64,000 nt of DNA from a virus: positions 1 through 64,000 of the IMG/VR virus record IMGVR_UViG_3300037423_001065; one strand, given 5' to 3'. Shown in pieces: positions 2 through 22,417 of the stretch. The notes beneath the pieces are model-generated. The model saw only the letters and a list, made by a program, of their open reading frames with translations, was not told where the DNA came from and searched no databases. The translations under genes were made by a program, and so were the position numbers. Position 1 is the first letter of the stretch. Every line of letters begins with the position of its first letter.

Positions 2-1393
2 CGCGTCGCCGCGCACGGCAAGCACGGCGTCACCGGCGAGATTGACGGCGCCCACCACAAGATCACCTGGGACAAGGTCCTGGGCCACAAGTCGCGCGTC
101 GCCATCCACGGCCGCATCATCGACCAAGGCGAGGATGGCATGCTCCTACAGGACCAGGCCGGCCGGCGCCGCTACGTCGCTACCCCCAACGAGGCAAAAG
201 AGGACCCGCTCGTGATCGCGAAAGCATTCGACCCGCGCCGCCCCGTGCTCCTGTTCAAGGGCGGGCCGATCGCGAACCGGCCGGGCCTGGTCAAGCGGCC
301 GGTCACGGACAAGAACGGCGTCCAGACGCAGCGCTGGGTCAGCACCGACCAGGCGGCCGCGCCGGCGCAACCAGGCGCGCACGTCGGTTTCGTGAACGGC
401 GCGCACCGCGGGCACGGCCAGGTCACGGCCGCCGGCCAGCATGGCGTCACCGTCAAGGACGACGCCGGCGGCGAGCATCGCGTGCGCCACGGCGCCATCA
501 CGCACCACTGGGAAGGCGCCGGCAAGCCGACCAGCTCGCCGCACGAGCAGCGCCAGGCCGACGCCGGCGCCGAGCCGGCGAAGGGTGACGCAGTGTTCGA
601 CCAGGCCGAGGTGGCGAAGCTGCCGAAAAAGGTGAACCAGCCGCACAAGACCTGGGGCGACCTGGTCAAGCACGGCTCCGAGGGCCTGGAGCAGTTCAAG
701 CAGCAACTGTCCGGCATCGCGAAGTCCATGGGCCTGGTCGAGGGCAAGCGGCCCGACGACATGACCGAGAAGGACTGGGCCGACGAGAACGGCTTCGTGT
801 TCATCGCGCCGCTCAAGAGCGAGGCGCGCTCGAAGGAAAAGGTCGAGGCCGATTACGGCGGCGACTGGTCGCAACTGCGCGACGTGGTGCGCGCGACCAT
901 CAGCGTGCCCAGCATGGCGGACGTGAAAACCGCGATCGCCAAGCTGAAAGAGGCCGGCGTGCACCTGGCGCAGCAACCCAAGGACCGGTTCTCCGAGCCG
1001 ACCAGCGAGGGCTACCGCGACGCCATGACGATCGTCAAGCTGCCCAACGGCATGCTCGCCGAGCTCCAGATTCACGTGAAGGCGATGACCCTGGCGAAGG
1101 AAAAGGGCCATCACGCCTACGGCGTGTGCCGATCGCTGCGCGCGAAGTACAACGAGGCGTCGCCCACCGACAAATGGTCGGACGAGGACCACACCAAGTT
1201 CTACGAGGCGCTGAAAGAGCAGAAGGAGCTGTACGGCAACGCCTGGGCCCAGGCGACGGCCGGCGGCCAGCCGGAGGCGAAGGTCGCCGGCAAGGACGGC
1301 AAGCCCGGCGCGTCGCAAAAAAGCGACGAGCGGCCCTTGCAAAAAGGCGGGACTTCATCGAAAATGATCATGTTGGTTAGGAAATCGAAGTGA
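2..1393 (+). CDS. 5'-truncated multidomain protein: SH3/KOW-like repeats plus a RelA/SpoT-like (small alarmone synthetase-type) nucleotidyltransferase domain
   Basis: Frame is open from position 2 into ORF 140-1393. Motifs PLKSEARSKEK, LRDVVRAT, GYRD, ELQIH and GHHAY match the RelA_SpoT synthetase pattern. Confidence 0.75.
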   Translation, partial: RVAAHGKHGVTGEIDGAHHKITWDKVLGHKSRVAIHGRIIDQGEDGMLLQDQAGRRRYVATPNEAKEDPLVIAKAFDPRRPVLLFKGGPIANRPGLVKRPVTDKNGVQTQRWVSTDQAAAPAQPGAHVGFVNGAHRGHGQVTAAGQHGVTVKDDAGGEHRVRHGAITHHWEGAGKPTSSPHEQRQADAGAEPAKGDAVFDQAEVAKLPKKVNQPHKTWGDLVKHGSEGLEQFKQQLSGIAKSMGLVEGKRPDDMTEKDWADENGFVFIAPLKSEARSKEKVEADYGGDWSQLRDVVRATISVPSMADVKTAIAKLKEAGVHLAQQPKDRFSEPTSEGYRDAMTIVKLPNGMLAELQIHVKAMTLAKEKGHHAYGVCRSLRAKYNEASPTDKWSDEDHTKFYEALKEQKELYGNAWAQATAGGQPEAKVAGKDGKPGASQKSDERPLQKGGTSSKMIMLVRKSK

Positions 1394-1632
1394 ACGAAAA
1401 CCCGAACATGGTCTACATCGAGAACGAGGGCGCGCTGTTCCGCGGCCCGGCTCGTAGCAACCCTGTCGAGGTCTGGAACGTCGCGAAGGGCGCGTTCGTT
1501 CCGTACATGGGTAGCAAGGACAAGCCGATCGACTGGGGCAACGAAATCAGCGAGGCGGAAGCCAAGGAGCTGATGGGCGAAGGCGCCGAAGTCGAGGGCG
1601 AGCAAGAACAGCCGGCTCCTGCCGGCGAATGA
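1390..1632 (+). CDS. Small acidic hypothetical protein (80 aa), possible antitoxin/partner of the upstream enzyme
   Basis: GTG start overlaps the upstream stop (GTGA); phage-like codon usage. Confidence 0.7.
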   Translation: MNENPNMVYIENEGALFRGPARSNPVEVWNVAKGAFVPYMGSKDKPIDWGNEISEAEAKELMGEGAEVEGEQEQPAPAGE

Positions 1633-1641
1633 AAGCGCGAG

Positions 1642-1895
1642 GGGCCCGGGGTGACAGCCGGGTCTAACTTTACCGGGTAGGCGTACCGAAGCGAGCGGTC
1701 CCGGGTCTATGACAAAAGCGCTAGGAGCCTGGTGCTGCGCACCGTTCTGTCGCGGAGCGCGGCATCAGGCGCCGAACATTTTCAGAACCCCGGGGGGTGT
1801 GTCGGGTTGGCGCCGGCACCGTGTCATCGGAACCTCCTAGCGAAGCAAAGCCCACACTGCCCAATGTGAGCCTCCCGGGATTCACTACTACCTGA
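1642..1895 (+). ncRNA. Candidate structured ncRNA A (nested multi-stem with possible pseudoknot)
   Basis: Complementary segments 1674-80/1888-94, 1697-1705/1874-82, 1719-27/1834-42, 1728-40/1757-69 and 1770-75/1807-12; crossing pair 1709-14/1822-27; followed by a terminator. Confidence 0.55.
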
Positions 1896-1896
1896 C

Positions 1897-1928
1897 ACGC
1901 CGCGGCGCATTCTGCCCGCGGCGTTTTT
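1897..1928 (+). terminator. Rho-independent terminator
   Basis: ACGCCGCGG/CCGCGGCGT stem followed by a T run. Confidence 0.8.
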
Positions 1929-1930
1929 GC

Positions 1931-1946
1931 GTCGTGAGCCGAAACT
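1931..1946 (+). promoter_or_regulatory. Putative late promoter motif driving ncRNA B
   Basis: GTCGTGAGCCGAAACT, immediately after a terminator; matches the recurring motif. Confidence 0.6.
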
Positions 1947-1951
1947 GGGTA

Positions 1952-2165
1952 CTGCCATCGGGAGATGGCGGCTTGGCCTGCGCGTTCGCGCGCTGTGCTG
2001 TTGCGACCCTGAGCGGCTTCCATTGGGGAAATAAAGGCCGCAGTTAGGTCACGATCGTGTCGTCTAGGGGTAGGCGGCATCCTTTCCTGCGGGGCTTCGG
2101 GGCTCGCAGTAGACGGGGGCCTAACCGTGAGGCCGGGGCGGGAAACCGCTCCGGCCTTTCGTCTT
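1952..2165 (+). ncRNA. Candidate structured ncRNA B (about 210 nt) ending in a terminator hairpin
   Basis: Hairpins with GGGA, UUCG, cUUCGg and GAAA tetraloops; stems 2013-19/2035-41, 2060-66/2110-16 and 2087-93/2103-09; own promoter motif; terminator at 2130-2165. Confidence 0.6.
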
Positions 2166-2181
2166 GTCGTGACTCGATGAT
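2166..2181 (+). promoter_or_regulatory. Putative late promoter motif (leaderless start)
   Basis: GTCGTGACTCGATGAT, 6 nt before ATG 2188, no SD sequence. Confidence 0.7.
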
Positions 2182-2187
2182 CGCGAG

Positions 2188-3342
2188 ATGGGCCTGTTTG
2201 TCGACCTCGAGCCGCTGTCCGAATCGCAAACGGACATGGCGCTCAACCTGATCTACAAGGCCATCCACGATCACAACGGCGAGGAGATTTGGCTCCCGCT
2301 GGACAACCCTTTCGTGGCGCGCCTCGCCGAGCTGTTCACGCAGCGCGGACTCGATCGCCTGGACGCCTTCCGCCGCGAGCTCAAGGCATGGTCCGAGGGC
2401 GCGCGTCACCGCGCCGGCATGGAGCGCGTCGCGCGGCCCGCCGGCATCATGGAGCGCTGGTCGCCTGGCGAACTCGAGCTGGTGAAGCTGTACCTCGAGC
2501 ACCTGCCGCCCGCCGAGTGGACCCTCGAGGACCACATGATGATGGTGGACTGGCTGACGCAGCGCTACCTGCCGGCCAGCGACATGCAGACCGAGGCCGA
2601 GTGGCTGGCGACCCGCGCGACGCTCATGGGGCGCGTGCAGGCGAGCATGGACCAGGTGACGGCCGCCCAGGCCGACCAGGTCATCGCGGCGCTGCCGCTC
2701 ACCGCCCAGGCGGCGATCGACCTGTTCCCGTTCACGAAACCGCAGCGCGCCGGCCTCGAGTACGCCGTCGAGCGCGCCGGCGAGAACGTGCGCGAGGTCG
2801 CCAACGACGTGCGGCGTCGCATGCGCCAGACGATCGCGCAGCACGTCAACGCCGTGCACCTGGGCGACGCGCCGCTGGCCGCCTCGCTCGAGACCAAGCT
2901 GGGCGACCAGTTCGCGCAGCTCAATCGCGACTGGCGTCGCATCGCCGTGACCGAGACCGTCGAGGCGCAGAACCAGGGCTACATCGCCAGCCTGCCGCGC
3001 GGCGCGCGCGTCAAGCGCATCGAGCAGTACAAGGGCGCGTGTAAGTTTTGCCGCAACATCGACGGCCGGGTCATGAACGTGGTCGACGCCGGCGACGTGC
3101 ACAAGAACGGCCAGACCGACATTTGGCCTGGCAAGACCAACGTCGGCCGCTCGGCGGCGCTGCACAAGCGCCTGGGCGGCCTGCTGATCGAGCGCGAGCC
3201 GCACGAGCTGTGGTGGCCGGCTGCAGGAACGCAACACCCCCACTGCCGCGGCCGCTGGGTGCCGACGATCGCCGACCAGGCCGGCGACGACCCGCAGTTC
3301 GGCGACTGGCTGCGCAAGACCCTGGCCGGGAGCAAGACGTGA
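2188..3342 (+). CDS. Head morphogenesis protein, MuF/SPP1 gp7-like
   Basis: WRRIAVTE, CKFC and C-terminal HPHCRGRW motifs typical of the MuF family. Confidence 0.8.
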   Translation: MGLFVDLEPLSESQTDMALNLIYKAIHDHNGEEIWLPLDNPFVARLAELFTQRGLDRLDAFRRELKAWSEGARHRAGMERVARPAGIMERWSPGELELVKLYLEHLPPAEWTLEDHMMMVDWLTQRYLPASDMQTEAEWLATRATLMGRVQASMDQVTAAQADQVIAALPLTAQAAIDLFPFTKPQRAGLEYAVERAGENVREVANDVRRRMRQTIAQHVNAVHLGDAPLAASLETKLGDQFAQLNRDWRRIAVTETVEAQNQGYIASLPRGARVKRIEQYKGACKFCRNIDGRVMNVVDAGDVHKNGQTDIWPGKTNVGRSAALHKRLGGLLIEREPHELWWPAAGTQHPHCRGRWVPTIADQAGDDPQFGDWLRKTLAGSKT

Positions 3343-3566
3343 TCCTGTACCAGGCGCTCGAGCTGCGCGACGAGCTCGGCAAGCCCCTGGGCCGCTGGCG
3401 CCAGACCATGAGCTGCGACGAGGCGCCGCGCCTGGAGCATCCGGTGCCGCTGTGCTCCTGCCCGAACGGGCACGAGTCGCGCCAGGCCGCGCGCCAGTGC
3501 CCCGTGGTGCAGGCGGCGCTGCCGCCGGAGCTGCGCGATCGACCGGACGACGAGGCCAGCGAATGA
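3339..3566 (+). CDS. Small Cys/His-containing hypothetical protein (75 aa)
   Basis: GTG start overlaps the MuF stop, and its stop overlaps the next ATG; CSC..GH....A..C pattern. Confidence 0.65.
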   Translation: MILYQALELRDELGKPLGRWRQTMSCDEAPRLEHPVPLCSCPNGHESRQAARQCPVVQAALPPELRDRPDDEASE

Positions 3567-4741
3567 CCATCCTGCTGCTCAAGACCCATGTGAGGGGGTA
3601 CGTCAAGCGCGACGGCACCGCGGTGGCCCCGCACCAGGACAAGCGCCCGGCCGCGCACGGGCATCCGCCGCCGGCGATGACCGCCGCCCAGGCGAAGCAG
3701 CGCGACCTGTTCGAGGAGCATGCGCCCAAGGTGTTTTCCATCTCAGCTCATGGCTCCGCGGTCGCGATCGCGCCCGGGCCCGACCTCGCCAGCTATGACA
3801 AGGTCCTGATCGGATTCAGCGGCGGCAAGGACAGCATCGCGTGCCTGCTCGCGCTTCTCGAGAACGGCGTCCCGCCGGAGAAGATCGAGCTGCACCACCA
3901 CGACATTGACGGTGAGGGCGCGTCCTTCATGGACTGGCCGATCACCAAAGACTACTGCCGCAAGATCGCGGAAGCGGTCGGCGTGCCGATCTACTTCTCC
4001 TGGCGCGAGGGCGGGTTCGAGCGCGAGATGCTGCGCGAAAACCAACGCACGGCGCCGGTGATCTTCGAAAAGCCCGACGGGACCCGTGGGCGCGCTGGCG
4101 GTGAACATGGACCGCTGGGCACGCGCAGAAAATTCCCCCAGCAGTCCGCCAACCTCACGACGCGCTGGTGCAGCGGCGCGCTCAAGGTGGATGTGATGGC
4201 CGCGGCCGTTCGCAACCAGGAGCGGTTCACCGGCAAGCGCACCCTAATCGTGACTGGCGAGCGCGCCGAGGAGAGCTCCAACCGGGCGAACTACAAGGCG
4301 TTCGAGCCCGATCGCGCGCACAGCTCGACGCGCCACGTCGACCACTACCGGCCGGTGCACGGCTGGAGTGAGGCCCAGGTCTGGGACGTGATGCGCAAGC
4401 ACGGCGTCGTGCCGCACCCGTCGTATCAGCTCGGCTACGGCCGGCTGTCGTGCCGGAATTGCATCTTCGCCGGCCCGAACCAGATTGCGACGAACAACAC
4501 GCTCTACCCGGCCGAGACCGGCAAGGTGGCGCAGCGCGAGCGCGAGTTCGGCGTGACCATCCACCGCAAAGAGGACCTGATGACGCGCGCCGCGAAGGGC
4601 CGCGCGTACCAGGCGGCGATCGACCAGCCGGAGGTGGCGGCGCTGGGCAACTCCAAAACCTGGGCGGGACCGGTCATCGTGCCGGTCGACCAGTGGAAGC
4701 TGCCGGCCGGCGCTTTCGGCGAGAAGGACGGACCATGCTGA
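3563..4741 (+). CDS. PAPS reductase-family (PP-loop) protein with N-terminal cargo tag
   Basis: FSGGKDS PP-loop, WCSGALK, TGERAEES and RLSCRNC motifs; likely start ATG 3563 (ATGA overlap). Confidence 0.85.
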   Translation: MTILLLKTHVRGYVKRDGTAVAPHQDKRPAAHGHPPPAMTAAQAKQRDLFEEHAPKVFSISAHGSAVAIAPGPDLASYDKVLIGFSGGKDSIACLLALLENGVPPEKIELHHHDIDGEGASFMDWPITKDYCRKIAEAVGVPIYFSWREGGFEREMLRENQRTAPVIFEKPDGTRGRAGGEHGPLGTRRKFPQQSANLTTRWCSGALKVDVMAAAVRNQERFTGKRTLIVTGERAEESSNRANYKAFEPDRAHSSTRHVDHYRPVHGWSEAQVWDVMRKHGVVPHPSYQLGYGRLSCRNCIFAGPNQIATNNTLYPAETGKVAQREREFGVTIHRKEDLMTRAAKGRAYQAAIDQPEVAALGNSKTWAGPVIVPVDQWKLPAGAFGEKDGPC

Positions 4742-6690
4742 TTGTGTTGGCGAAGGCCCACGTCAAGGGCTATGTGAAACAGGACGGCACCGTGGTGCGG
4801 CCGCACGACGACAAGCGGCCGGCGGCAAAGCCGGTACAGCCGTCGCTCGAGCTGCGCGAGCCCACCGGTGGCGACCAGGTCACGCCGTTCCCGTACGCGT
4901 CCGGCATGAGTCGACGCCGCGACATGGAGGCGGCGATCGAGTCGCCGGCCGGCCTGGGCACGGAAATCGGCGAGCTGTCCAACTTCGGCATGGACCGCAT
5001 CGTGGAAGCCATCCGGCGCGAGAAAAAGCCGGTGTTCGTGGACTCCGGCGCCTTCAACGCGTTCAAGCGCGCGATGCGCGAGGGCGACGCCAGCAAGGCG
5101 CGCCTGGACTTCGCGCCGATCTTCGCGAAGTACTCCGAGCTGTCGCGCCGGGTGTGCCAGGACGTGCCGTATCGCGACCGCGCGCTGCTCATGGTCGTCG
5201 CGCCCGACGTGATCGGCGACCAGGTCGCGACGCTCGAGCTGATCGAGAAGCACGCCGACCAGGTGCAGGCGTGGCTCGAGGCCGGGCACGAGGTCATCGT
5301 GCCATTCCAGCGCGGGCCGCTGAACCAGCGCGAGGCGTATGACCGCGTCGCCGCGGCGCTGGGCGGTACCGACTTCGTCGTCGGCATCCCGTCGGCGGCG
5401 GCCGCCATGACCGCGTCCGACCTGCGCGAGCTGCTGTCTGGCGACTACCTGCCCGATCGCCTGCATATCCTCGGCGCCGTGAGCTCGCACCGCATGGAGG
5501 AGCGCATGGAGGTGATCCGCGAGTGCTACGTCTCGGACGTGCCGGGAGTGACCTGCGACGCGAACGTGATGCGCTCGAAGCTCCAGGAACTCGGCGGCCT
5601 GTCCGGCGGCGTGAAGTTCGACAAGATCAAGGAGATTCTGTCGCGCGTGGTGCCGAAGCAATGGGGCGGCTCGCTCGAGCCCGTGCTGGCGAAGGCGATG
5701 CTGGACGAGGACGACGCCCAGGTGGGGTTCTTCACGGCGCCCGTGCGCCACGTGGACGTGTTCGCCCAGGGCTGGACGCCGCCGACGCGCGCCCAGGCCG
5801 AGGCCGGCGAGTACTTCAAGCCGACGGTGCAGTGGCGCGGCCTGACCATCCGCATCGAGAATCCCGCGGGCTCGACGCGGCACTGGCGTGGCGGCGCGAC
5901 GAAAATGCGCTACGACTACGGGTACTTCGAGGACACGATCGGCGCCGACGGCGACGAGCTCGACGTGTACCTGGGCCCGTCGCTGGCCTTCGCGCCGAAC
6001 GTCTACATCGTGCGCCAGCGCCGACACGGCGACCCGGCCGCCGGCTCCTGGCGGCGCTACGACGAGGACAAGGTCATGGCCGGCTTCCTGTCTGAAAAGC
6101 AGGCGCGCGCAGCCTACCTCATGCACTACGACGACCCGCGGTTCCTGGGCGAGGTCGTCACAATGCCTGTGGACAAGTTTGTGGAAAAGGTCCATGCGAT
6201 GGGCGGCAAGCCCGGCATGCTCAAGGCGCTGATGTTCATGACCCAGGTCGGGAACTACATGCGCAACGGCCATCCGGTGCAGGGCTACCAGCGCCACGAG
6301 ACGCGCGAAAGCACCGACCCGCACGCCGGCATCCGAGCGGCCCACCAGCGCCAGCGCCAGGCCCTGCGCGACCACTTCCGCCAGTACGGCGACGGCTTCG
6401 AGCTGCGCCACTTCGACGGCAAGCAGTGGGCCGTCCTGATGCCCGATGCGAGCCACGAGGGCAAGTACCGGTACCAGGTGTTCGATGACCGCGGGCTGCG
6501 CGCGCACTACACGTACAACCGGCCGGAGGACGCGCTCGACGGCGCCTACGATGCCGGGTTCCGCGAGCATGATCCTGGCGCCATGGAGCGCCTGGCGCCC
6601 GTCTGGGCGGCCCGCTTCGATGACCCCGAGGTGCAGGCCCGGGCGTCGGTCTCCGGCGAGCGGGAAGATGGCGACCGCACGCAATCGTGA
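4735..6690 (+). CDS. Polyprotein: cargo tag + TGT/DpdA-like base-exchange domain + inorganic pyrophosphatase-like domain + C-terminal domain
   Basis: VDSGAF, PDVIGD and HILG (TGT-like); IENPAGSTR, DYGYF, GADGDELDVY and DEDKVM (PPase-like). Start ATG 4735 follows AAGGA. Confidence 0.7.
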   Translation: MLIVLAKAHVKGYVKQDGTVVRPHDDKRPAAKPVQPSLELREPTGGDQVTPFPYASGMSRRRDMEAAIESPAGLGTEIGELSNFGMDRIVEAIRREKKPVFVDSGAFNAFKRAMREGDASKARLDFAPIFAKYSELSRRVCQDVPYRDRALLMVVAPDVIGDQVATLELIEKHADQVQAWLEAGHEVIVPFQRGPLNQREAYDRVAAALGGTDFVVGIPSAAAAMTASDLRELLSGDYLPDRLHILGAVSSHRMEERMEVIRECYVSDVPGVTCDANVMRSKLQELGGLSGGVKFDKIKEILSRVVPKQWGGSLEPVLAKAMLDEDDAQVGFFTAPVRHVDVFAQGWTPPTRAQAEAGEYFKPTVQWRGLTIRIENPAGSTRHWRGGATKMRYDYGYFEDTIGADGDELDVYLGPSLAFAPNVYIVRQRRHGDPAAGSWRRYDEDKVMAGFLSEKQARAAYLMHYDDPRFLGEVVTMPVDKFVEKVHAMGGKPGMLKALMFMTQVGNYMRNGHPVQGYQRHETRESTDPHAGIRAAHQRQRQALRDHFRQYGDGFELRHFDGKQWAVLMPDASHEGKYRYQVFDDRGLRAHYTYNRPEDALDGAYDAGFREHDPGAMERLAPVWAARFDDPEVQARASVSGEREDGDRTQS

Positions 6691-6699
6691 CAGGATGAT
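6684..6699 (+). promoter_or_regulatory. Putative late promoter motif
   Basis: ATCGTGACAGGATGAT, overlapping the upstream TGA stop. Confidence 0.6.
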
Positions 6700-6725
6700 C
6701 TAGGGCACCCGGACCAGGCGCGCCC

Positions 6726-9700
6726 ATGATCATCCTTTTCCAGAAATCCCAACTCGCCCTGTTCGACACGCCCGTGCGAGTGGCGACGCACGTGCGCAAG
6801 GACGGCGTCGTGATCCCGGAGCACACCGCGACGCGGAAAAAGGGCGTGCACGCCGCGCACCACGGCCGCCTGCAAGCCTTCATCGACAACCACGGCGGCG
6901 CCGCCGGCATGGCCCGCACGCTGTCGTCCATGTCGGCCGCTCACCAGCAGCGCCTCTACGCCGAGATGGCGAAGCTGGGCGGCATCACGCCCGAGGAGGT
7001 CGCCGCGAAGTTCCCGGACGTGAAGCCGGCGCCGGAGCCCGTGCCGGATATGTTCACGCCGCCGCCGGCGCCTGCAGCGGCCGAACCCGCGCAAGTCGTT
7101 GAAAACACTGGGGACGAGGAGCCGCGATCGACCGACGACGACCACCCGGCGCCGACGCCGCGCCAGTCGCTGCGCGACCTGAGCGACGCCGATCGCAAGC
7201 GCTGGCTCGAGCTGCACCGCACGCAGCACGAGACCCACTACCACGAGATGGGCAAGGTGCGCGCCGAGATGGAGCGCGTGCACTCGAAAAAGAACAAGGC
7301 GGAAACCGCGATGCGCGAGGCCGAGGCCGGTCTCGAGTCGCAGCGCAAGGCGCCCGTGCCGGACGTTGTGCGCGAGGGCCAGTTCGAGGGCTCCATCGGC
7401 GCGCACCGCGCGGAGTTCAAGAAGCACGCCGCCAAGCTGGACGAGCTCGCCGGGCACCTGGAGACCCTGACCGGGTTGCGCGATCGCCTGGGCAAGCAGA
7501 AGGACGAAATCCTGGCCGGCAGCGGCGACCTGCGCATGAACCTCATGTCCGGCCAGCGCTCGACGCTCCAGGAGGAGCTGGACGCCCAGAAGCACTACGC
7601 GCGCGAGTACCGCGACTACTTCAAGGGCAAGGACAAGAAGCCGAAGGCCGAAACGAAACGCGCCAAGCGCGGAACGGAGCCGGCCAAAGCTGAAACGAAA
7701 CCCGCAGAAGTCGAAACGCCGGTGCCCGACACGCACGATCGCGCCGCGCCGTTCGGCGTGCCGGCCGGCATCAGCAAGGCCGAGCGGCGCTCGATCAACA
7801 GCCAGGTGGCCGCACGCATCGCGCAGGGCGGGCCGTTCGACGGCGCCGACCGGCACCTGATGCGCCAGTACAGCGGCAACGGCGGATGCGGCGACAGCCT
7901 CAACGAGTACTACACCGACCCGGCCGTCACGCGCGGCATGTGGACGGCGATCGCCGCGATGGGCGTCACGCATGGCGACGTGCTCGAGCCTTCCTGTGGC
8001 ACCGGCGTGTTCCTGCACACCGCGCCGACCGGCTTCAAGGTCACGGGCGTCGAGCTGGACCCGGTGAGCGCCACGGTGGCGTCTGTACTGCACGGCGATC
8101 GCCATGAGGTGCACACCGCTTCGCTCGAGCGCTTCGCGACCATGGACGATCGCCAGTTCGACGTGGTGATCGGCAACCCGCCGTACGGCCCGCGCGGCAT
8201 GCTGGCGAAGGACGACAAGAAGTACATCTCCACCGCCGAGCAGTACTTCGTGGACACGGCGATCGACAAGGCGAAGCCGGGCGGCATCATCGCCCTGGTC
8301 GTGCCCACCGGCATCCTGGACTCGAGCTCCGGTCGCTCGATGCGCCAGAGCTGGCTGTGCCGGGCCGAGTTCCTGGGCGCGCAGCGCATGCCGAACACCG
8401 CGTTCGAGCACTCGCACACCGAGGTGACAACCGACGTTGTCTACTTCCGCAAGCGCCCCGACGCCGTCGGCCAGGCCCTCAACACCCTGGACGAGAAGAT
8501 TCCCGACGACCTGGCGGCGCTCAAGAAGCTGGGCGTCTGGGACGAGGAGTTCATCGCCGGCTCGTACTTCACCGGCCGCGGCGCCGCGAACATCCTGGGC
8601 ACGATGGGCCCGGGCTGGCGCGCCCAGGCCGGCATGGGCAACGACATTACCGTCAACGGCTCGATGGCCGGCGTCCCCGAGGCCCTGGCGGCCTTCACGC
8701 CCGACAGCGAGTCGCGCCCGGCGACCGATCTGAGCGTCGACCAGGTGCTCGACACTCTCCAGGGCGAGCCGCGCGAGCGCGCGCGCAACGCCGCGCAGCG
8801 CGATCGCCCCTACCTGAACACCGCCAAGGTCGGCGACGTGAAAACCGTCGACGGCGTCGAGTACATCCTCCAGGGCGACCCGCCGCGCTGGCATCGCGTG
8901 GACGAGTTCATGCAGGCGCCGGCGATCGCCGACGCCGCGCCGATCGCCGCGGAAATCGACCGCCTGTTCAACGGCCAGGCCGTGAACCGGCCGCAGCTCG
9001 AGGCCGACGTGCGCGCCTGGGTGGCGAAGCACGGCATCCCGGCCGACAACAAGGACCTGATGACCGCGGCGTCGTCGGACCGCACGCTGTACCGCCTGAT
9101 CGGCGCCGTCAACCGCCAGGGCGAGCTGTCCGACGCCGTGCTGGGCAAGGGCTCGCGCGCGCTCGAGGGCGGCTTCGACGCGACCGCCGAGGCGATGGCG
9201 CTGGAGGCGAAGTCGGGCGACTTCACGGCCGCCGAGCTCGCCGAGCGCCTGGGCAAGAACCTGGACGAGGTCGAGGAGCACCTGGCCGCGGACGCGCGCT
9301 ACGCGTGGGTCGGCGACGGCCGCTGGGCGCCCATGAGCATGTACCTGACCGGCGAGCTGTGGCCGAAGCTGGACGCCGCGCGCGCCGCTGTCGCCGCCGG
9401 CCATCCGCTCAAGGACAAGCTCGCCGACCAGGTCTCGCGCCTGGAGAAGGCGATCGACCCGAAGGCGCTCGAGGACGTTGAAATCCAGCTCAATTCCGCG
9501 TTCCTGCCGCTGCACGTCATCGAGGCGTTCTTCAACTGGAAGCAGTACGACAGCGACGAGGCCAACGAGTGGACGAAAAAGCAGAAGCCGCTCGAGCTGG
9601 TGTTCCGCGACGGCGTCTACATCGTCAGCGGCGGCAACCAGTACGGCACGGCGAAGCTGCTGGACAAGTACCTCAATCGCACCGGCATCCGCAAAGAGGA

Positions 9701-13181: not shown

Positions 13182-13507
13182 ACGCCCGCGCATTCGCCGA
13201 AAGCACGCTCCAGCTCCTGCAACAGGACCCGCGGCGCTACCGCAATTTCGGCCCCTACTGGTGGTTCGTCAAGGCGCTGCTCAAGCAGTTCTACACGCGC
13301 GACAACCTGCACCTGCTCGGTGACTACGAGGAGCCGGACGCGCTCACGCGCATGGCGCCGGAGGCGACGACCTCGCTCGACGCCGCGCTGCAGGCGGCCG
13401 TCGAGGAGTACCGCCAGAACGCCACGTACAACCTGGGCCGGACGACCGTCACCGACGCGAACGGCGAGGTCTACACCCTGAGCGACCCGGACGCCGGGCT
13501 GTCGTGA
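13178..13507 (+). CDS. Hypothetical protein (109 aa)
   Basis: ATGA overlap with the upstream gene; typical codon usage. Confidence 0.75.
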   Translation: MNARAFAESTLQLLQQDPRRYRNFGPYWWFVKALLKQFYTRDNLHLLGDYEEPDALTRMAPEATTSLDAALQAAVEEYRQNATYNLGRTTVTDANGEVYTLSDPDAGLS

Positions 13508-13526: not shown

Positions 13527-14087
13527 ATGAACAAGCCCGTCGTTTTCCTCAAGTCGCACGTCGAGCCCTACACCAAGAAGGACGGCACGACCGTTGCGGC
13601 GCACGAGCGTCTGGTGAACATGCGCGCTCACCCGAAGGGGTACAAGCCGGGCCAGCACGTGTTTTTCCCGCACCCGCAAAAGAAGGGCAAGAACGGCCTG
13701 GGCATCTACATGGGCGAGCGCGAGGGCAAGTCCGTGGTGCATCACGTGCACGGCGAGGACGGCAACCAGCATGACGTGGAGCACGACCAGGTCAAGGGCG
13801 CGCGCGGCATCCCGAAGCCCGCGGACCCGGCGGCCGACGCCGAGAAAAACCTCGAGCGCGCGAAGGGTGGCAACAAGTCCGGCGTGCCGGACGATCACCT
13901 CGAGCTCATGGAGCAGTCGCTCGCCAACGACGAAAACAGCTCCGACGAGGAGCTGCATGACCATTTCGTCAGCTCCGGCGTGCACCCGGACCATGCCCGC
14001 GAGGCGATCAAGCACCGCGAGAAGTTCACCTCGGCCCCGCTGCCGGCCGCCGGCGAGCTGCGCCGGCTGATGGCGAAAAAGGACTGA
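13527..14087 (+). CDS. Hypothetical protein with N-terminal cargo tag and SH3/KOW-like domain
   Basis: Starts VVFLKSHVEPYTKKDGTTVAAH, similar to the N-termini at 3563, 4735 and 6726. Confidence 0.75.
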   Translation: MNKPVVFLKSHVEPYTKKDGTTVAAHERLVNMRAHPKGYKPGQHVFFPHPQKKGKNGLGIYMGEREGKSVVHHVHGEDGNQHDVEHDQVKGARGIPKPADPAADAEKNLERAKGGNKSGVPDDHLELMEQSLANDENSSDEELHDHFVSSGVHPDHAREAIKHREKFTSAPLPAAGELRRLMAKKD

Positions 14088-14091
14088 CGGC

Positions 14092-14107
14092 GTCGTGACC
14101 CTACGAT
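14092..14107 (+). promoter_or_regulatory. Putative late promoter motif (leaderless start)
   Basis: GTCGTGACCCTACGAT, 6 nt before ATG 14114. Confidence 0.7.
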
Positions 14108-14113
14108 GAGGCG

Positions 14114-17100
14114 ATGGCCGATCGCCCCATCGTTTTCCTGCCCGCCCAGGCCCTGGCGAAGGCCGCCGCCATCCCGGACGGCGCGCGCTGGATTACCGTT
14201 CACCCGAACGGACCCGGCACTGAGGGCCAGCCCGTGCTCATTCAGCCCCAGGCCGACGGCTCGGCGCACGTCATCGGCGGCGCTGGCGGCAAGCTGAACT
14301 ACCTCAAGCTGCGCGGCGTCAAGAAGGAATCCGAGTACCAGGCCGAGGCGGCGCAGCGCAAGAAGGCGAAGGCCGAGGAGCGCAAGGTCCAGGCGCAGCG
14401 CGATCGCGAGGCCGGCATCGCTGAAAAGAAAAAGCAGGCGAAGCAGGACGTTGCGCGCCAGCAGCGCGAGCACGAGGCGAAGTTCGTCCAAACCGTCGCC
14501 CAGGCCATGGGCTGGGACCCGAAGGCGCTCGAGTTCCCAGAGGACCAGTACGCGAACGTCTCCGACGCGGCGCGCAACAAGGCGGCCGCCGAGCACCACC
14601 GCGAAATCATGCGCAAGGCGTCCGAGGCCGTCGAGATGCAGCGCCAGCGCCTGGTGGCCGACCATGCCGCGCGCATGGAGGCCGGCATCGGCGAGGTGCC
14701 GCTCGATTCGAAGGACCCCGAGGTGCTGTCGGTCGAGGACCTGGACCCGACCCCCATCGGCGCCGCGGCGACCGGTTTCTCGCACAACTTCAAGGAGCGC
14801 GCCGAGAAGGCCGGCCTGACGGACGAGGAGCTGAAACAGGAGGTGGCGCCGATCAAGGAGGCGCGCCTGGCGCAGCTCACCGACGACCAGCGCAAGGCGG
14901 CGATCGCGCGCGGCGAGACCGCGAAGATGGTCAAGAACGAGCTCGAGAAGATTCGCGAGCCCATCGCCCCCAAAAACGACACCTCGCTGGCCGACGCCCG
15001 CCAGGCCGCGGAGATTCTGCGCGCTGCGAAGCGCCTCAAGCAAATCCAGAAAAAGGCGCGCGAGGCGAACGCGGCGATCGACAAGTCCACCGCGGAGCCG
15101 AAGGCGTACATCCTCGAGTACACCGCGGACCCGGAGGCCGACTCGAAGATCGCCGAGGACCTGGCGAACGACTTGCGCACCGCGCAGACCATGGCGTTCC
15201 TGTCCGAGTTCAATCGCCTGGCCGGCGATCGACCCGAGGAGACCCTGGGCAAGCACATTGCCGTGGGCGCCTACAACAGCATCAACAGCCTGGCCCAGGC
15301 CGTCGGCGGCCAGGCGCTGGTCGACCGCAGTGTCGTGGACGTGCTCGGCGTCGCCGGCGCCGCACAGGTGCTGGCGCGCCGCATCCACAACGACCTGCCC
15401 GAGGATGCCGAGCGCATCACGGAGGGCATGCAGGACTTCCACCTGCACCACTACATGGACGCGAGCGCCGAGGCCATGGGCCGCGCGCAGGAGCTCCTGG
15501 ACGCCGCGAAGGAAATCGAGCTGGGCGAGGCCGAGACCGGCCAGGACCTGCAAGTCGCCCAGGAGATGAACGCGCGCCGGCGCCGCGCCGTCGTGGAGGC
15601 CCAGAAGATTCTCGGCCAGACCCTGGGCGAGATGGAGGCGAACGCCGCGCTCACCGTCGCCCTCAAGCAAGGCAAGAAGGGCCAATTCCAGGTCTCGATG
15701 GGCAAGCGCTCGATCGAGTCCGCGATCACCCAGGCGCGGGCGATCGGCCTGCAGCGCGGCGACTACCAGGTGGACACCGCCGGCGGCAACACCTTCCTGA
15801 CCGTCACCGGCGCCGGCCTCGATCGCCTGGCGAAGCCGATCGACCGCGCCGACCTCGAGCAGGTCCGCCGGAACCTGGCGATCATCCGCGGCGACCAGGA
15901 CGAGGACGGCTGGCTCCCGCTGGGCGTAGCGCGCCGGCCAGACCTCGCCATGGACGTGAAGCCGGGCGTCGCGCCGCGCCTGGCCGAGCCATTCAACCCG
16001 GGCGCCGACCTCGAGCAGGCGCTCCTCGATTACATCGGCGGGCGCGCGGCCGACGGTGACACGCCGGGCGACATAGTCGCGGACATTCAGTCGGCGGCGT
16101 TCTTCGACAAGGTCGGGCCCGGCCGCGCCGACGAGTACCGCAAGGCACTGGACGCCGTCGCACCGCTCAAGGACGGCCGCGGAAAGCCGCGCCGCGCTGA
16201 GGCCCTGGCCGGCGACTTCGACGGCTACGCCGACCTGTTCGTGCAGAAGCGGCACCCGGCTGGCCGGGCGGCGATCAACCGCCAGCAGTTCAAGGTGGAC
16301 CAGGTCAGCGTCGACGCGCTGCACCGCGCCCTGGCGGAAACGCCGGATGGCGTCGCCGCCTTCAAGCAGCTCGGCGAGCTCGAGCCGCATGACCAGCGCG
16401 CGCTGCGCGAGTTCTTCTACCGCAACATCGCCAAGGAGGGCGACGCCGCGGGCAACCTGCGCCGCGAGCTCGAGGACCACGTCGCCGCGGAGCCGGAAAA
16501 GACCGTCGGCGATATGTTCGGCGAGCAAACCGAGAACCCGGCCTGGGCCGAGTGGCGCGCGCGCCGCGACGAGCTGGCCGCCAAGGTCGGCAGCGCGTCG
16601 CTCGACTGGCCGAAGTACGTCGATGCCATGCACGGCAACGAGAAGGCGTACGAGGCCGTGCAGGACCTGATCCGATCGCGCGTCGCGAAGTCGTTCCTCG
16701 AGGCGCACAACCGGCTGAACCCGCGCTCGCCGCTCAAGCTGGGGCGCACCGTCATCCGGAACAACCTGAACCACCTGGACGCCGTCGACCCGGCCGCGCG
16801 CGAGGAGCGCATGGCCAGCGAGCGCGCCCTGGTGGACAGCCTGCGCGAGCGCTCCGCCGGCAAGTACGCCGCCGGCGCCGTCTCCGACAAGCTGGACGCC
16901 GCCCGCGAGAAAAACGAGGCGCTGGAGCAGGCCCAGATGGGGTTCTTCTCCACCGACGACGCGCCGGCCGCGGCCGACGACCAGGCGCCGCAGCTCGCCG
17001 GCGACGAGCGCTACACGATCGGCCACGAGGCAGAGCGCCAGCTCGCCGGCATGATGGGCGTCGTCGGCCGCAACTTCAAGCCAGGCCAGCCGCTGCGCCT

Positions 17101-18691: not shown

Positions 18692-18705
18692 GTAACATAG
18701 GCGCC

Positions 18706-18888
18706 ATGTTTCGAATCAGCCTAGTCGCCCTGGCATCGCGGTACGCCCTCTACGGCCAGCCGACGCATGGCCTGAGTAGCATCCCCGGCACCCAGGCGTC
18801 CGGAAGCAACGCCCTGCGCCTGCTGCGGCACCACTTCCTGCCGGGCCAGACCGGGCACCAGGTCCTGCTCCTGCGGAGGCCCGAATGA
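18706..18888 (+). CDS. Small hypothetical protein (60 aa)
   Basis: Fills the gap, and its stop overlaps the next ATG. Confidence 0.45.
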   Translation: MFRISLVALASRYALYGQPTHGLSSIPGTQASGSNALRLLRHHFLPGQTGHQVLLLRRPE

Positions 18889-19145
18889 ACGACATGCGGG
18901 ACACGCCGCGCCGGCAGCTCGGCGAGCTCGGCGCCCTGGCGACCAGGACCGAGGCCGACGAGCGACGCATCCTCGAGGCGGCCGAGAAGCGGCTCGAGCG
19001 TGTCGAGGGCGAGCTGGACTCCGCGCGTGCCGTGGCAATGGGTGCGCCGGCGGACGCCGATCGGTACCAGGCGCTGATCGAGGAGCGCGGGCGATTGAAC
19101 CAGGTCATCGCCCAGGCGCGCGCCGTGCTCGAGCCCGACGACTGA
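18885..19145 (+). CDS. Hypothetical coiled-coil protein (86 aa)
   Basis: GGAGG SD upstream; followed by a terminator. Confidence 0.7.
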   Translation: MNDMRDTPRRQLGELGALATRTEADERRILEAAEKRLERVEGELDSARAVAMGAPADADRYQALIEERGRLNQVIAQARAVLEPDD

Positions 19146-19167
19146 TCGTCGCAACACCTGACATATA

Positions 19168-19190
19168 GGCCGCCGCGAGCGGCCTTTTTC
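19168..19190 (+). terminator. Rho-independent terminator
   Basis: AGGCCGC-CGCGA-GCGGCCT followed by TTTT. Confidence 0.7.
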
Positions 19191-19216
19191 GTGTCCGCGC
19201 GCGATGGCGTTGTCCG

Positions 19217-19232
19217 GTCGTGACAACACCAT
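19217..19232 (+). promoter_or_regulatory. Putative late promoter motif (leaderless start) for the head operon
   Basis: GTCGTGACAACACCAT, 7 nt before ATG 19240. Confidence 0.7.
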
Positions 19233-19239
19233 ACGCTCC

Positions 19240-20169
19240 ATGTTTCCGTCCGACGAAAGCCTCATCGCGGCTGTCCCGTCCTTCATCAGCATCGGTTCGA
19301 TGTTGAAGGCGACGCCGTCGATGGATGGCGGTCGCCGCTTCCTGTACTGCGAGGCCAGCAACGAGGGCCTGGACCAGCAAAACGAGGTCGTCGCCGCGAA
19401 GGCGCTGGCCGAGTCCGCCGAGTACTTCAAGCGCTACGGCAACATCGACCTGGAGCACTACACGCTGATCGGCAAGCCGAACCCGGCCAAGGGCTGGCCC
19501 GGCATTCCCGACGCGAACCTGTACGAGATTGGCCGGCCGTGCGACGTGCGCCAGACCGGCAAGTCCACGTTCGTGAAGTCGGAGATTTACTCCGGCGACG
19601 GCATCGCGGCCGCGCGCGCCAACGAGTTCTGGTCGTCCCTGACCGAGCTCAATCCGCCGCAGCGCTGGTATCCGTCCGTCGGCGGCGCGATCGACAAGTC
19701 GGCGACCAAGGTCGTGATCGACCCCGAGACCAAGCTGCGCAAGGCGATCGTGCAAAAGGTCCGCTGGACCAACATCGGTTTCAGCAAGACGCCGGTCAAC
19801 CAGCACGTGCCCGAGTGCGCGACGCTGCCCATGGGTGCGTTCGCGAAGTGCTTCGGCGCCGAGGGCTTCGACCTGGCGAAGGCGCTCGAGGCGAGCTACG
19901 CAACGGACGCCGTCGGCAAGACCGGCGGCGGTGCCCTCGGCATGCAGTCGCTCGATCGCGGCCAGGCGCCCAGGAACTATCACGAGTTCCGCGAGAAATT
20001 GGCCGAGCACGTCCGCACGGGCGTGATCGGCGAGAACCCCGGTGCGGGCGAGCTTGTCTCGTACGCCGCCAATCATTTCAGCTTGCCGTCCGACCAAGCG
20101 GCTGAATGGGTCGAGCGCTTCGTGCGCGATTTGAAAACTGGTCTCAACAAACGGAGCATGAAATCATGA
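19240..20169 (+). CDS. Prohead maturation protease
   Basis: ASNEGLDQQNE, IDLEH, SVGG and TPVN motifs of the HK97/herpes-type protease fold; lies before scaffold and capsid. Confidence 0.8.
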   Translation: MFPSDESLIAAVPSFISIGSMLKATPSMDGGRRFLYCEASNEGLDQQNEVVAAKALAESAEYFKRYGNIDLEHYTLIGKPNPAKGWPGIPDANLYEIGRPCDVRQTGKSTFVKSEIYSGDGIAAARANEFWSSLTELNPPQRWYPSVGGAIDKSATKVVIDPETKLRKAIVQKVRWTNIGFSKTPVNQHVPECATLPMGAFAKCFGAEGFDLAKALEASYATDAVGKTGGGALGMQSLDRGQAPRNYHEFREKLAEHVRTGVIGENPGAGELVSYAANHFSLPSDQAAEWVERFVRDLKTGLNKRSMKS

Positions 20170-20867
20170 GTCAATTCCAGAAGCTGCTGGCGGACCTCGC
20201 GCAGGCCCAGGCAGGCACGGATACCCTCGCGAAGTCGCTCCCGGCGGGCGGCGAAGGCGCCGGTGCCGGCGCGGGTGGCGAAGGTGGTGAAGGCGGCGCA
20301 GCGGCCGGCGGCGAGGGTGCCGGCGGTGAAGGCGGCGCGGCGGGCGCGGGCGAAGGCGCGGGCGCGGGCGGCGAAGGCGGCCAGGCGACCCTCACCAAGT
20401 CGCTCAAGGTCACGCTGGCCGACGGCACCGAAGTCGAAGCCGAGGACGGCACCGAGCTCGTGAAGGCGCTCATGGCGCGCCTGGACGACGCCGAAACGAC
20501 CCTCACCAAGTCGCTGACGATCACCATGGACGTGATCGGCAAGCAGAACGCGATGATCAAGTCGCTGAGCGAGCAAGTCACCGCGCTGCGCGGCGAAGGC
20601 CGCGGCCGCAAGACCGTCATCGCGATCCACGACAAGGGCGGCGCCGCCGCCGGCGGCCAGGGCGCGGGCGCCCAGGGCGGCGAAGGCGAGCTCGCCAAGG
20701 GCGGGGCCGAAGTGTCCGCCGACGACTTCATGCTCAAGGCGCACGCCGCCTATGACCAGAAGCTGATCGACGGCGTCGGCCTCGGAACCATCGACGTGTG
20801 CCTGCGCTCCGGCCAGCCCGTCCCCACCGACCTGATTTCCAAGGTTGCGAAGGCCAAGACGGCCTAA
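20166..20867 (+). CDS. Putative capsid scaffolding protein, Gly/Ala/Glu-rich
   Basis: Lies between protease and capsid; coiled-coil segment; several LxKS motifs. Confidence 0.7.
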   Translation: MSQFQKLLADLAQAQAGTDTLAKSLPAGGEGAGAGAGGEGGEGGAAAGGEGAGGEGGAAGAGEGAGAGGEGGQATLTKSLKVTLADGTEVEAEDGTELVKALMARLDDAETTLTKSLTITMDVIGKQNAMIKSLSEQVTALRGEGRGRKTVIAIHDKGGAAAGGQGAGAQGGEGELAKGGAEVSADDFMLKAHAAYDQKLIDGVGLGTIDVCLRSGQPVPTDLISKVAKAKTA

Positions 20868-20911
20868 GCCCCTGCGAAAACCCAGCCCACCAACTCTCAT
20901 CGAGGTTTGAA

Positions 20912-22417
20912 ATGAAACAACTTCTCGCGCAATTCGCGAACGTGGCGGCCGGTACCGGCGCCGCGGCAGCGCTGGGCGGCTCGCATGGCGGCGCCCTCTC
21001 GCAATTCGAGGAGCTCCAGAAAGCCCTCCAGGCGAGCAACTACCAGACGGACGTTTCGACGCTGACCGGCGGCGGCGCGCTCGGCGTGCAATCGCTGGAC
21101 ACGGCGATGAAAACGACCATCCAGGAGAACGAACACTTCATCCTGTTCAACCAGCTCCAGAGCACGAACGCCACGAACATCGTGGACGAGTACACGCGCC
21201 AGACGAGCGTGGGCGGCTTCCTGGGCGGCACCACGAACACCCAGATGGGTGTCGTGCGCGCGGCGCAGGGCGACTACAGCCGTGAAATCGGCCTGGTCAA
21301 GTTCCTGATGACCCTTCGCCAGGTCGGCTACGTGCTGAACATCGGCAAGAACATCGTGGAAGCGACCGCGGTCGAGGAGCGCAACGGTGCCCTGCAGCTC
21401 CTGACGGACGCCGAGTACCTGCTGTTCTACGGCAACGCCGACGCGAGCCCGACGCAGTACGACGGCATCTTCGCGCAGCTCGACAAGGAAATCGCCGCCG
21501 GCGGCATGCCCAGCGACTGCGTCCTGAACATGAACGGCGCGAAGCTCGACTCCGTCGACCCGTTCTCGAAGATCAACGTCGCGGTCTCGCGCTACGGCTC
21601 CTGGGGCCGCAGCACGGACGTGTACCTGCCCAACTCCGTGCAGAACGACCTGAACATGGGTCTCGACCCGGCGTTCCGCTGGGGCCCCGGCCAGAACACG
21701 CCGCAGATCGGCTCGCACGTCGAGGGCATCCGCCTGACGAACGGCGTGCTCAAGACGCACATGGACACGTTCATCCACGACGAGGCGCACCCGATGCAGT
21801 CCCCGTTCGAGGTGAACTTCGCCGCGATCGCGACGGCCAACGTCGGTTTCCGCCCGGTGTCGATCGCCGGTGTGGCCGCCGCGGGCACGCCCGCCAACTG
21901 GTTCACCGCGGGCCGCGCGGGCAACTACTACTACGCCGTCGAGGCCATCGGCGCGAGCGGCGAGGGCATGTCCGGCGTCGTGAAGTCGGGCCAGGTGGCC
22001 GTGGCCGCGGGCAACAAGGTGACGCTCACGATCACGCGCTCCGCCGCGGCGACCGAGTCGGGCTATCGCATCTTCCGCTCGAAGCAGGACGGCGTGAACA
22101 CCACGTCCGAGTTCCGCCTCATGGCGGTGGTGAAGTGCGCCGGCGCGACGACCACGTACGTGGACGAGAACCAGAACATCCCCGGCACGACCGCCGTCCC
22201 CATGCTGAACATGAGCCGTTCGGCGGACGCGATCGGCTGGCGGCAGTTCCAGCCGATGACCAAGATTCCCCTGCCGTTCGGCATCGGTGGCGTCCCGGTC
22301 ATCTCGTGGTTCCAGTTCCTGTTCGGGTACCTGCGGATCACCAAGCCGAAGCACCACGGCTACATCAAGAACATCCTGCCGGCCAACGCCCTGTGGCGTC
22401 CGCACACCGGCGAGTAA
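20912..22417 (+). CDS. Major capsid protein
   Basis: LQKAL...GGALGVQSLD N-arm resembling SPO1/A511/K-type capsid proteins; LFYGNAD and QYDGI motifs; GAGG SD; terminator downstream. Confidence 0.88.
   Translation: MKQLLAQFANVAAGTGAAAALGGSHGGALSQFEELQKALQASNYQTDVSTLTGGGALGVQSLDTAMKTTIQENEHFILFNQLQSTNATNIVDEYTRQTSVGGFLGGTTNTQMGVVRAAQGDYSREIGLVKFLMTLRQVGYVLNIGKNIVEATAVEERNGALQLLTDAEYLLFYGNADASPTQYDGIFAQLDKEIAAGGMPSDCVLNMNGAKLDSVDPFSKINVAVSRYGSWGRSTDVYLPNSVQNDLNMGLDPAFRWGPGQNTPQIGSHVEGIRLTNGVLKTHMDTFIHDEAHPMQSPFEVNFAAIATANVGFRPVSIAGVAAAGTPANWFTAGRAGNYYYAVEAIGASGEGMSGVVKSGQVAVAAGNKVTLTITRSAAATESGYRIFRSKQDGVNTTSEFRLMAVVKCAGATTTYVDENQNIPGTTAVPMLNMSRSADAIGWRQFQPMTKIPLPFGIGGVPVISWFQFLFGYLRITKPKHHGYIKNILPANALWRPHTGE

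Follow-up and report, generated by a model that had tools for sequence, protein, structure and literature searches.

A leader–hairpin tag on candidate capsid-cargo enzymes of a myophage clade and its relation to the putative prohead-protease site

Introduction

How would the large enzymes encoded among the head genes of a tailed phage find their way into its capsid? The question is raised by the window analysed here, bases 1-64000 of one 98,102-bp viral contig (IMG/VR record IMGVR_UViG_3300037423_001065), in which genes for a series of unrelated enzymes precede those of the prohead protease, the scaffolding protein and the capsid protein. Several of these enzymes start with the same short element, a hydrophobic leader ending in lysine and a small residue and followed by a basic hairpin, which we call the tag. 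An initial annotation of this DNA had taken it for a single address-and-cleavage code, shared with the head proteins, that loads about 19 kb worth of enzymes into the head. Proteins injected together with the phage DNA can disarm the host's defences ahead of all phage gene expression, and to our knowledge the entry of large enzymes into capsids is known for a few models only, namely T4, P1 and the phiKZ-like phages. We report that the leader–hairpin module is a conserved and apparently undescribed sequence module, a real observation beyond chance, and we argue that its probable role is to bring anti-defence enzymes into the capsid, where they would be trimmed.

The window is best explained as the head-assembly module of a ~98-kb myophage from the clade of Bordetella PHB04 and Pseudomonas Dolphis. 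One long late module runs on the + strand from 2 to ~51 kb. The nearest cultured relatives are Bordetella phage PHB04, the Pseudomonas phages Dolphis and Jeremy, Aeromonas phage ST4 and Yersinia phage fHe-Yen8-01; remoter ones are Touem01 and Morganella phage Mecenats66, and the similarity of the capsid protein extends to Thermus and SPO1-like phages.

The tag and its carriers in the window

A full tag opens three genes of the window (all features given below lie on the + strand). At 3563..3646 the leader ends at K7/T8 and the hairpin follows (66 bits against the hidden Markov model, HMM, of the tag), at the start of a PAPS-reductase-family enzyme (gene 3563-4741; matches to Pfam PAPS_reduct and to phrog_424). 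A second copy (4735..4818, K7/A8, 65 bits) begins a polyprotein of 651 amino acids with an InPase domain (gene 4735-6690), and a third (13527..13610, K9/S10, 65 bits) a protein of 186 amino acids (gene 13527-14087). After the motif the hairpin usually follows the consensus H-V-x-G-Y-x-[KR]-x-D-G-T-x-V-x-x-H. Two larger enzymes carry variants: in the DarB homologue (2151 amino acids, gene 6726-13181) the leader, ending at K7/S8, is followed by a 13-residue insert and the hairpin half of the tag (6726..6824), and in an SF2 helicase (1525 amino acids, gene 14114-18691) the leader, ending at K16/A17, is followed by another module, W-I-T-V-H-P-N-G (14114..14212). These five N-termini had been quoted in the initial annotation and are real, each with a true start codon and a Shine-Dalgarno-like sequence upstream.

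The tag HMM, built from 4 sequences and scanned in all six frames over the whole 98,102-bp genome, matched only at 3563, 4735 and 13527 (62-66 bits), the next best score being below 7 bits. A regular expression for the leader, tried at every possible start codon in all frames, returned the starts of four cargo genes, two sites inside cargo genes and three others, which we judge to lie in non-coding frames. The tag does not extend to the whole ~19 kb, as had been supposed: the gene at 2188, that of the Ulx homologue at 13178 and an open reading frame (ORF) of 86 amino acids at 18885 carry none.

The variants are themselves conserved. The N-terminus of the DarB homologue is also found in PHB04 gp027 and in the related locus L004, PHB04 being the sole match of a tblastn search with this N-terminus. 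The helicase orthologues of PHB04, L006, L010 and L012 likewise have a hydrophobic run at the N-terminus, then K/A and then the same W-I-T-V-H-P-N-G module. The 186-amino-acid protein has an apparent and likewise tagged counterpart in Dolphis gp116 (L067:3361-3732). Behind their tags, these two proteins have in common the stretch K-G-[YH]-K-P-G-x-x-V-[FY]-F-P-H-P-Q-K, which may belong to a small beta-barrel domain; by eye, the N-terminal domain of ORF1, the first ORF of the window, loosely resembles the same stretch.

Spread of the tag and variety of its cargo

The tag is far from confined to this genome. A profile search of 1.84 billion representatives found the full tag in 1077 clusters at E <= 1e-3 and in 112 at E <= 1e-10, and many tag-bearing proteins hold 2-9 copies. 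In the best 150 of the 1077 clusters the tag stands at the N-terminus 92 times and, complete, at internal positions 99 times; a further 85 repeats consist of the hairpin alone. No Pfam or PHROG match covers the ~30-residue module, and the hairpin repeats gave only sub-threshold partial matches to DUF5666. A word-indexed protein search restricted to residues 1-40, a method too insensitive for this purpose, returned the query alone.

The proteins behind the tag are varied, here and in relatives, which bears out the idea of a modular element on unrelated cargo. Pfam matches on 103 of the best 150 representatives included InPase (16), ART-PolyVal (11) and protein kinase (5), with NUDIX, Acb1, Zeta_toxin, RadC, GNAT and others among the further families. 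Giant members, scanned separately, hold PBECR3, InPase and LPD3 domains, with tag copies at residues 115, 687 and 914, one copy lying directly C-terminal to the PBECR3 domain. Among the closer relatives, PHB04 bears the tag on an HD phosphohydrolase, ST4, Dolphis and fHe-Yen8-01 bear it on NUDIX enzymes, and L009 on a RadC-containing protein of 1896 amino acids; PHB04 also has a stand-alone InPase with a leader only.

Some individual carriers deserve mention. One tag-bearing protein matches Acb1, the nuclease directed against the cyclic-oligonucleotide-based antiphage signalling system (CBASS), with E 5e-40, and another matches Zeta toxin, so that known counter-defence enzymes may be delivered pre-made by such phages. 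In the single ORF at L004:11130-12539, inspected by eye, the N-terminal 150 residues resemble 2H phosphoesterases (two H-x-T motifs) and are followed by an internal double K/A/S site with hairpin and then by an ART-like domain.

A shared motif in scaffold, capsid, protease and portal proteins

What would link such a tag to the capsid is its core. Every K-small site cited earlier for the capsid protein, scaffold and protease was found again, and the core common to cargo and head proteins is a motif that is independently conserved in the scaffold, capsid, protease and portal.

The scaffolding protein (20166..20867) holds seven motif sites, starting at 20226, 20391, 20457, 20502, 20553, 20691 and 20730. 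In an alignment of 8 phages, whose scaffolds are 32-39% identical, they take the form [L/M/F]-x-K-[S/A/G]; five are fully matched in all, and of the two imperfect ones, one reads A-K-G in Dolphis and ST4 and the other is displaced in the window. Even a relative with as little as 42% identity in the protease retains the sites. In the more distant L065 two of the seven are absent, and in the corresponding 6-sequence alignment the lysine is invariant at 5. A resemblance of the tag hairpin to the D-G-T hairpin that follows scaffold site 2 was considered as mimicry and rejected: hhalign paired the same 10 residues with a probability of 0.5% and E 0.13.

The major capsid protein (20912..22417; phrog_752, E 2e-91) has poorly conserved N-terminal 35-45 residues that end in L-Q-K/A-L and high conservation thereafter. 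Its K37/A38 (21014-21025), conserved in 8 phages, is the predicted maturation site. In HMMER alignments this K-A lies opposite the K-S of PDB 5lii ("Major capsid protein"), which we take to be that of Staphylococcus phage phi812, and the K-A of 9vel (Gp6.1).

The prohead protease (phrog_1028, E 9e-35) occupies 19204..20169, its start lying at 19204 rather than at the 19240 initially given. Its own sites, K35/A36 (19300-19311) and K226/A227 (19873-19884), are conserved in 8 phages, and the second falls at the end of the predicted catalytic domain, just before a stretch that the model renders with low confidence. A PDB sequence search with the protease gave no match, and the AlphaFold2 model (predicted local distance difference test, pLDDT, 70) was found by Foldseek to resemble T4 gp21 (5jbl; E 4e-5, probability 1.0), with template modelling (TM) scores of only 0.28/0.46. 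His85 and Ser158, the candidate catalytic residues, are invariant in 7 sequences. The model thus points to the fold of T4 gp21 (herpesvirus assemblin) and to a serine protease of the gp21/assemblin type. Residues 223-251 of the protease (19870-19956) copy residues 34-63 of the capsid N-arm (21011-21100), 20/30 being identical (E 6e-7); the copy begins exactly at the protease's own L-x-K/A site, in a region where the model is disordered, and because of it protease queries also pick up the capsid genes of relatives.

The portal gene lies outside the window, and the C-terminus of its product (~97.7 kb on the contig) is built alike in all five phages compared: a linker, acidic and variable, leads to a conserved [L/M]-x-K/[S/A], behind which the protein ends with ~11-14 hydrophobic residues, likewise conserved. 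Here too the motif may be a processing site.

Could such sites arise by chance or composition, a hydrophobic residue followed by K-small being simply common in the proteins of a 68% G+C genome? Alanine, glycine, serine and threonine are indeed abundant, and the four-residue motif is expected 10 times in 7.6 thousand amino acids. The 13 head and cargo proteins that make up these 7.6 thousand residues hold [LMF].K[SA] 25 times against 10.0 +/- 3.1 expected, a count that none of 500 shuffles reached. The objection that the motif might be equally frequent elsewhere, which had been raised beforehand, does not hold, since the 66 other proteins of the genome have 18 where 17.4 are expected. No enrichment was seen when K was replaced by R or E or when the order of the motif was scrambled. 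The excess comes chiefly from the scaffold (6 against 0.4), the protease (4 against 0.5) and the InPase protein (3 against 0.6). Applied to the head proteins of relatives, the same test gave 28 against 9.6 in PHB04, 15 against 2.5 in Dolphis and 15 against 2.8 in ST4, with other proteins at expectation, so that in the window phage and these three relatives the motif is enriched 2.5 to 6 times in head-module proteins and 0/500 shuffles reached the observed count in any of the four genomes. With the sites also conserved by column, the tag HMM scoring 62-66 bits and 1077 clusters found at a library-wide E <= 1e-3, the chance explanation is refuted by shuffles, controls, conservation and profile scores, and we give it practically no credence. 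The motif [L/M/F]-x-K/[S/A] is very probably the prohead-protease site of this clade.

Copies within polyproteins

The internal copies of the tag repeat this pattern. Among the 99 internal full copies mentioned above, the presumed P1 position is K in 92 (never R), followed by S/A/T in 91 and preceded at P3 by L/F/M in 89, a profile equal to the one that the head proteins (scaffold, capsid protein, protease and portal) had yielded independently. Full tags between domains imply polyprotein processing.

The InPase polyprotein of the window is the clearest local example. Its InPase domain (residues 353-485 by Pfam) is preceded by an internal L-A-K/A site at residue 318 (5686..5697) and followed, just past its end, by an M-L-K/A site at residue 495 with a degenerate hairpin (6217..6300). 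At the equivalent place of the 90%-identical relative L003, the copy is still recognisable to the tag HMM (L003:13785-13874, 13.4 bits), and set against the degenerate copy of the window this indicates a module decaying within one lineage. In PHB04 the InPase unit is a separate gene of 169 amino acids (gp028) with its own leader ending in K/A and an M-I-K/A after the InPase domain, ~12 residues before the C-terminus. The unit is therefore flanked by the same sites whether it stands alone, as in PHB04, or inside a polyprotein, as in the window.

ORF1 (2..1393; Pfam RelA_SpoT, E 1.7e-6), a RelA/SpoT-like cargo gene whose start lies across the contig junction, is a less regular case. It had been listed as an internal instance of the tag. 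The tag HMM does not recognise the internal element, and what stands are K-small sites kept in the orthologues of PHB04, L003 and L004: two after a small N-terminal domain (212-226 and 248-262) and one near the C-terminus (1337-1351).

These internal copies bear on a second explanation, according to which the tag does no more than dock or anchor: leader and hairpin together would form a small beta module that binds the scaffold, the capsid interior, the portal or MuF protein or DNA and so gets the cargo encapsidated, is never cleaved, and needs its lysine and small residue for binding. The hairpin is indeed an independent and widespread module, three residues can suffice for a leader, the internal copies could be plain inter-domain linkers, and P1 DarB is targeted by an N-terminal signal without reported cleavage there (PMC9024508). 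On this explanation the match of the tag core (P3 L/F/M, P1 K and never R, P1' S/A/T) to the motif independently conserved in scaffold, capsid, protease and portal would be a coincidence, and the sites enclose the InPase unit in its free-standing form as well as within a polyprotein. We consider docking without cleavage unlikely, although it is the alternative that we take most seriously.

Association with the protease and the cargo island

If the tag belongs to the head system, it should travel with this protease. Among 50,697 cultured phage records (E < 0.5) the tag occurs in this clade only. IMG/VR contigs were found through a degenerate DNA pattern of the hairpin, and the genomic contexts of the 1077 clusters were sampled through these contigs alone. 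All five informative full-tag contigs (5/5) encode this protease family at 42-59% identity; it is not encoded on a 60%-complete full-tag fragment, a duplicate of a positive contig, nor on a 12-kb fragment. None of three hairpin-only IMG/VR records (0/3; 72-97% complete) encodes the protease.

The position of the cargo genes is instructive as well. The genes for the MuF-position protein and the protease enclose the cargo island in the window, PHB04 and several metagenomic relatives. In Dolphis (L067:3361-8780), ST4 (L015:1-4575) and fHe-Yen8-01 (L016:77-7822) it lies upstream of the terminase, and the stretch from portal over MuF to protease has no insert; the islands of these three encode a giant ART protein, a NUDIX enzyme and a likely counterpart of the 186-amino-acid protein. 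With two positions across relatives, the island is mobile and moves as a block. In fHe-Yen8-01 the tag-bearing gp131 and the leader-bearing gp129, an ART protein of 2146 amino acids, are labelled "particle associated protein" in GenBank, which is the one direct hint of packaging; we found no paper behind this label.

The hairpin has a wider distribution than the full tag. Alone, as V-x-V-x-G-Y-T-R-x-D-G-T-x-V-x-x-[YH]-x-R, it forms tandem repeats in Ser-rich proteins. Hairpin-only proteins in our set are P0008, P0020, P0021, P0025, P0028, P0030 and P0069, with loci including L018, L020, L033, L035 and L040. Such cases include proteins with Ser/Thr kinase domains and, in proviruses that lack this protease, small proteins whose N-termini resemble signal peptides. 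The notion of one address-and-cleavage code thus survives as a modular tag with a shared motif and has to be revised in that the tag consists of two separable parts, the hairpin alone being widespread.

This distribution also suits a third explanation, in which the element is a linker of general use in polyvalent proteins, binding nucleic acid or serving as an adaptor, and is unrelated to the capsid; the enzymes would be made late and act inside the cell that produces them or once it has lysed, or they would be processed by another peptidase such as metallopeptidase domains. Basic hairpins do repeat in proteins without phage head context, and Iyer et al. propose that metallopeptidases process polyvalent proteins (PMC5512222). 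Pfam scans of the window's cargo proteins found no peptidase family, the full tag strictly co-occurs with this protease family, the cargo genes sit inside the portal-to-capsid operon, and the DarB/Ulx homology together with the particle-associated annotation points to the virion. We regard a linker unrelated to the capsid as improbable.

Comparison with known systems

In phage T4, IPIII and further internal proteins bear a capsid targeting sequence, which gp21, the prohead protease, cuts off at L/I-x-E sites (PMC9024508). The window resembles T4 in that one short N-terminal peptide stands on otherwise unrelated proteins encoded among the head genes, that this peptide ends in a consensus also found at sites of the capsid protein and scaffold, with a putative role in processing, that the protease is predicted to share the same fold, and that the scaffold contains many sites. 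It differs from T4 in that the presumed P1 residue is Lys and not Glu, that a conserved basic hairpin follows the leader and would stay on the cargo, that the module recurs within giant multidomain proteins, and that the cargo consists of large polyvalent-type enzymes and not of small internal proteins. What is new with respect to the T4 principle is most likely the different protease specificity and the retained hairpin.

The second parallel is phage P1, whose DarB, a methylase-helicase of ~250 kDa, is packaged in the head through its N-terminal 30 residues; this signal carries a reporter into capsids, the capsid protein is processed at E120/S121, and the authors saw no common signal among the Dar proteins (PMC9024508). 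The DarB homologue of the window, an N6-methylase with an SF2 helicase, gives BLASTP matches to P1 DarB (E 2e-49, 6e-36 and 5e-25, over the methylase and helicase parts) and is directly followed by an untagged Ulx homologue (13178..13507; phrog_1629, E 3.5e-15), in the gene order of P1 darB-ulx. The cut of the P1 capsid protein after Glu is of another specificity than the one presumed here, and, unlike in P1, several proteins here have one tag in common. The N-termini of P1 DarB, Ulx, DdrA/B, DarA and Hdf have no motif in common with the tag.

The processing motif of phiKZ/SPN3US-type giant phages ends in Glu. In these phages the prohead protease removes propeptides from ejection proteins; the likeness is that many head-packaged, ejected proteins are processed at a common motif by a gp21-like protease (PMC5694885, PMC10052503, PMC7411985). 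The difference, besides the Glu, is that no conserved hairpin module exists there and that these phages form another clade with another capsid size.

The cargo also belongs with the polyvalent proteins of Iyer, Burroughs, Anand, de Souza and Aravind (2017), with the domains InPase, ART-PolyVal, RelA/SpoT, 2H, PBECR, LPD and SNF2 plus methylase, located beside head genes and with the same predicted packaging. Pfam found InPase, RelA_SpoT and SNF2 plus methylase in the window, and ART-PolyVal, PBECR3, LPD3, 2H-like and RadC domains occur in tag-bearing relatives. The scheme proposed by Iyer et al. is autoprocessing by metallopeptidase domains, and term searches of that paper found no mention of the leader–hairpin module (PMC5512222). 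The present case differs in that the inter-domain sites match the prohead-protease motif.

As for A511 and phage K (Twort-like) and HK97, whose capsid proteins reportedly mature by a K/S cut, the likeness lies in the alignment of the window's capsid K-A with the K-S and K-A of the homologues 5lii and 9vel described above; we know of no shared cargo tag in these phages.

A proposed mechanism and its standing

We propose, with fair though far from complete confidence in the whole mechanism, that the tag serves both the incorporation of polyvalent effector enzymes into the capsid and their processing by the prohead protease. The protease would cut after Lys in [L/M/F]-x-K/[S/A/T], and the motif would mark where the capsid protein matures, where the scaffold is degraded (at about seven places), where the catalytic domain of the protease begins and ends, and where a C-terminal peptide of the portal lies. 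The putative capsid-riding effectors with an N-terminal motif after a hydrophobic leader would be the PAPS-reductase-like enzyme, the InPase polyprotein, the DarB homologue, the 186-amino-acid protein and the SF2 helicase, and the RelA/SpoT-like ORF1 would join them with an internal motif. During prohead assembly, leader and hairpin would dock the cargo to the protease/scaffold core in the manner of the T4 capsid-targeting sequence. The activated protease would then remove the leader, cut polyproteins at their internal modules and free enzymes that each start with the hairpin. Finally, the basic hairpin would stay on the mature cargo and may hold it on the packaged DNA for a joint exit.

Several observations weigh against this mechanism. 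The leader of fHe-Yen8-01 gp131 is M-L-K only, too short for an address by itself; if the leader can shrink this far, the removed peptide is not the whole address, and the hairpin or a protease–substrate interaction must contribute. The hairpin in kinase-domain proteins and in proviruses without this protease suggests a more general role for it, and in a low-confidence AlphaFold2 model of the isolated 34-residue tag (pLDDT 63) the beta structure is limited to a bridge of two residues at the D-G-T turn. By-eye comparison of the N-termini found no similarity between the tag and the targeting sequence of P1 DarB. The motif was defined on the same genome in which it was counted, a circularity eased by its replication in other genomes and by the flat negative controls. 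Our search of the literature on PHB04, Dolphis, Mecenats66 and fHe-Yen8-01 found no virion proteomics or N-terminal data. Standard tryptic virion proteomics has a blind spot here in any case: a cut after Lys would be indistinguishable from a tryptic one and thus invisible, which may explain the lack of reports.

Beyond this, we put forward a broader proposal, tentatively and as one joint reading. The ~30-residue module could be a portable load-and-cut cassette of a large, mostly uncultured phage clade; the giant polyvalent proteins could be polyproteins cut by the prohead protease in the capsid and not autoprocessed by metallopeptidases; the freed enzymes (DarB-like, ART, NUDIX, Acb1-like, InPase) could keep a DNA-tethering hairpin for co-injection; and leader plus hairpin could serve, just as they are, to bring foreign proteins into capsids.

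Other features of the window

The contig junction cuts ORF1, and the portal gene lies at the contig's far end. The part of ORF1 encoded by the last bases of the contig seems to be repeated near window 1-260, as judged by eye from the translations, an overlap that is unconfirmed; a script run on the contig ends found no exact terminal repeat of 21-300 bases. Between ORF1 and the first tag, 2188..3342 encodes a head-module protein of 384 amino acids in the MuF/SPP1-gp7 position, which adjoins the portal in all relatives. It has zero motif sites and no Pfam or PHROG match, so its MuF label derives from position alone. Between the capsid and the neck/tail genes lie a methyltransferase-like ORF (23008-24456) and an ORF of 2069 amino acids (25210-31419), whose atypical G+C by codon position made GC-frame gene calling miss it.

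Significance

If the proposed mechanism is true, the injected proteome of a whole phage clade would become predictable from genomes, the candidates being Acb1-like, NUDIX, ART and DarB-like enzymes. It would also offer a testable answer to how the giant polyvalent proteins are split into working units, and a compact tag for packaging proteins in the laboratory.

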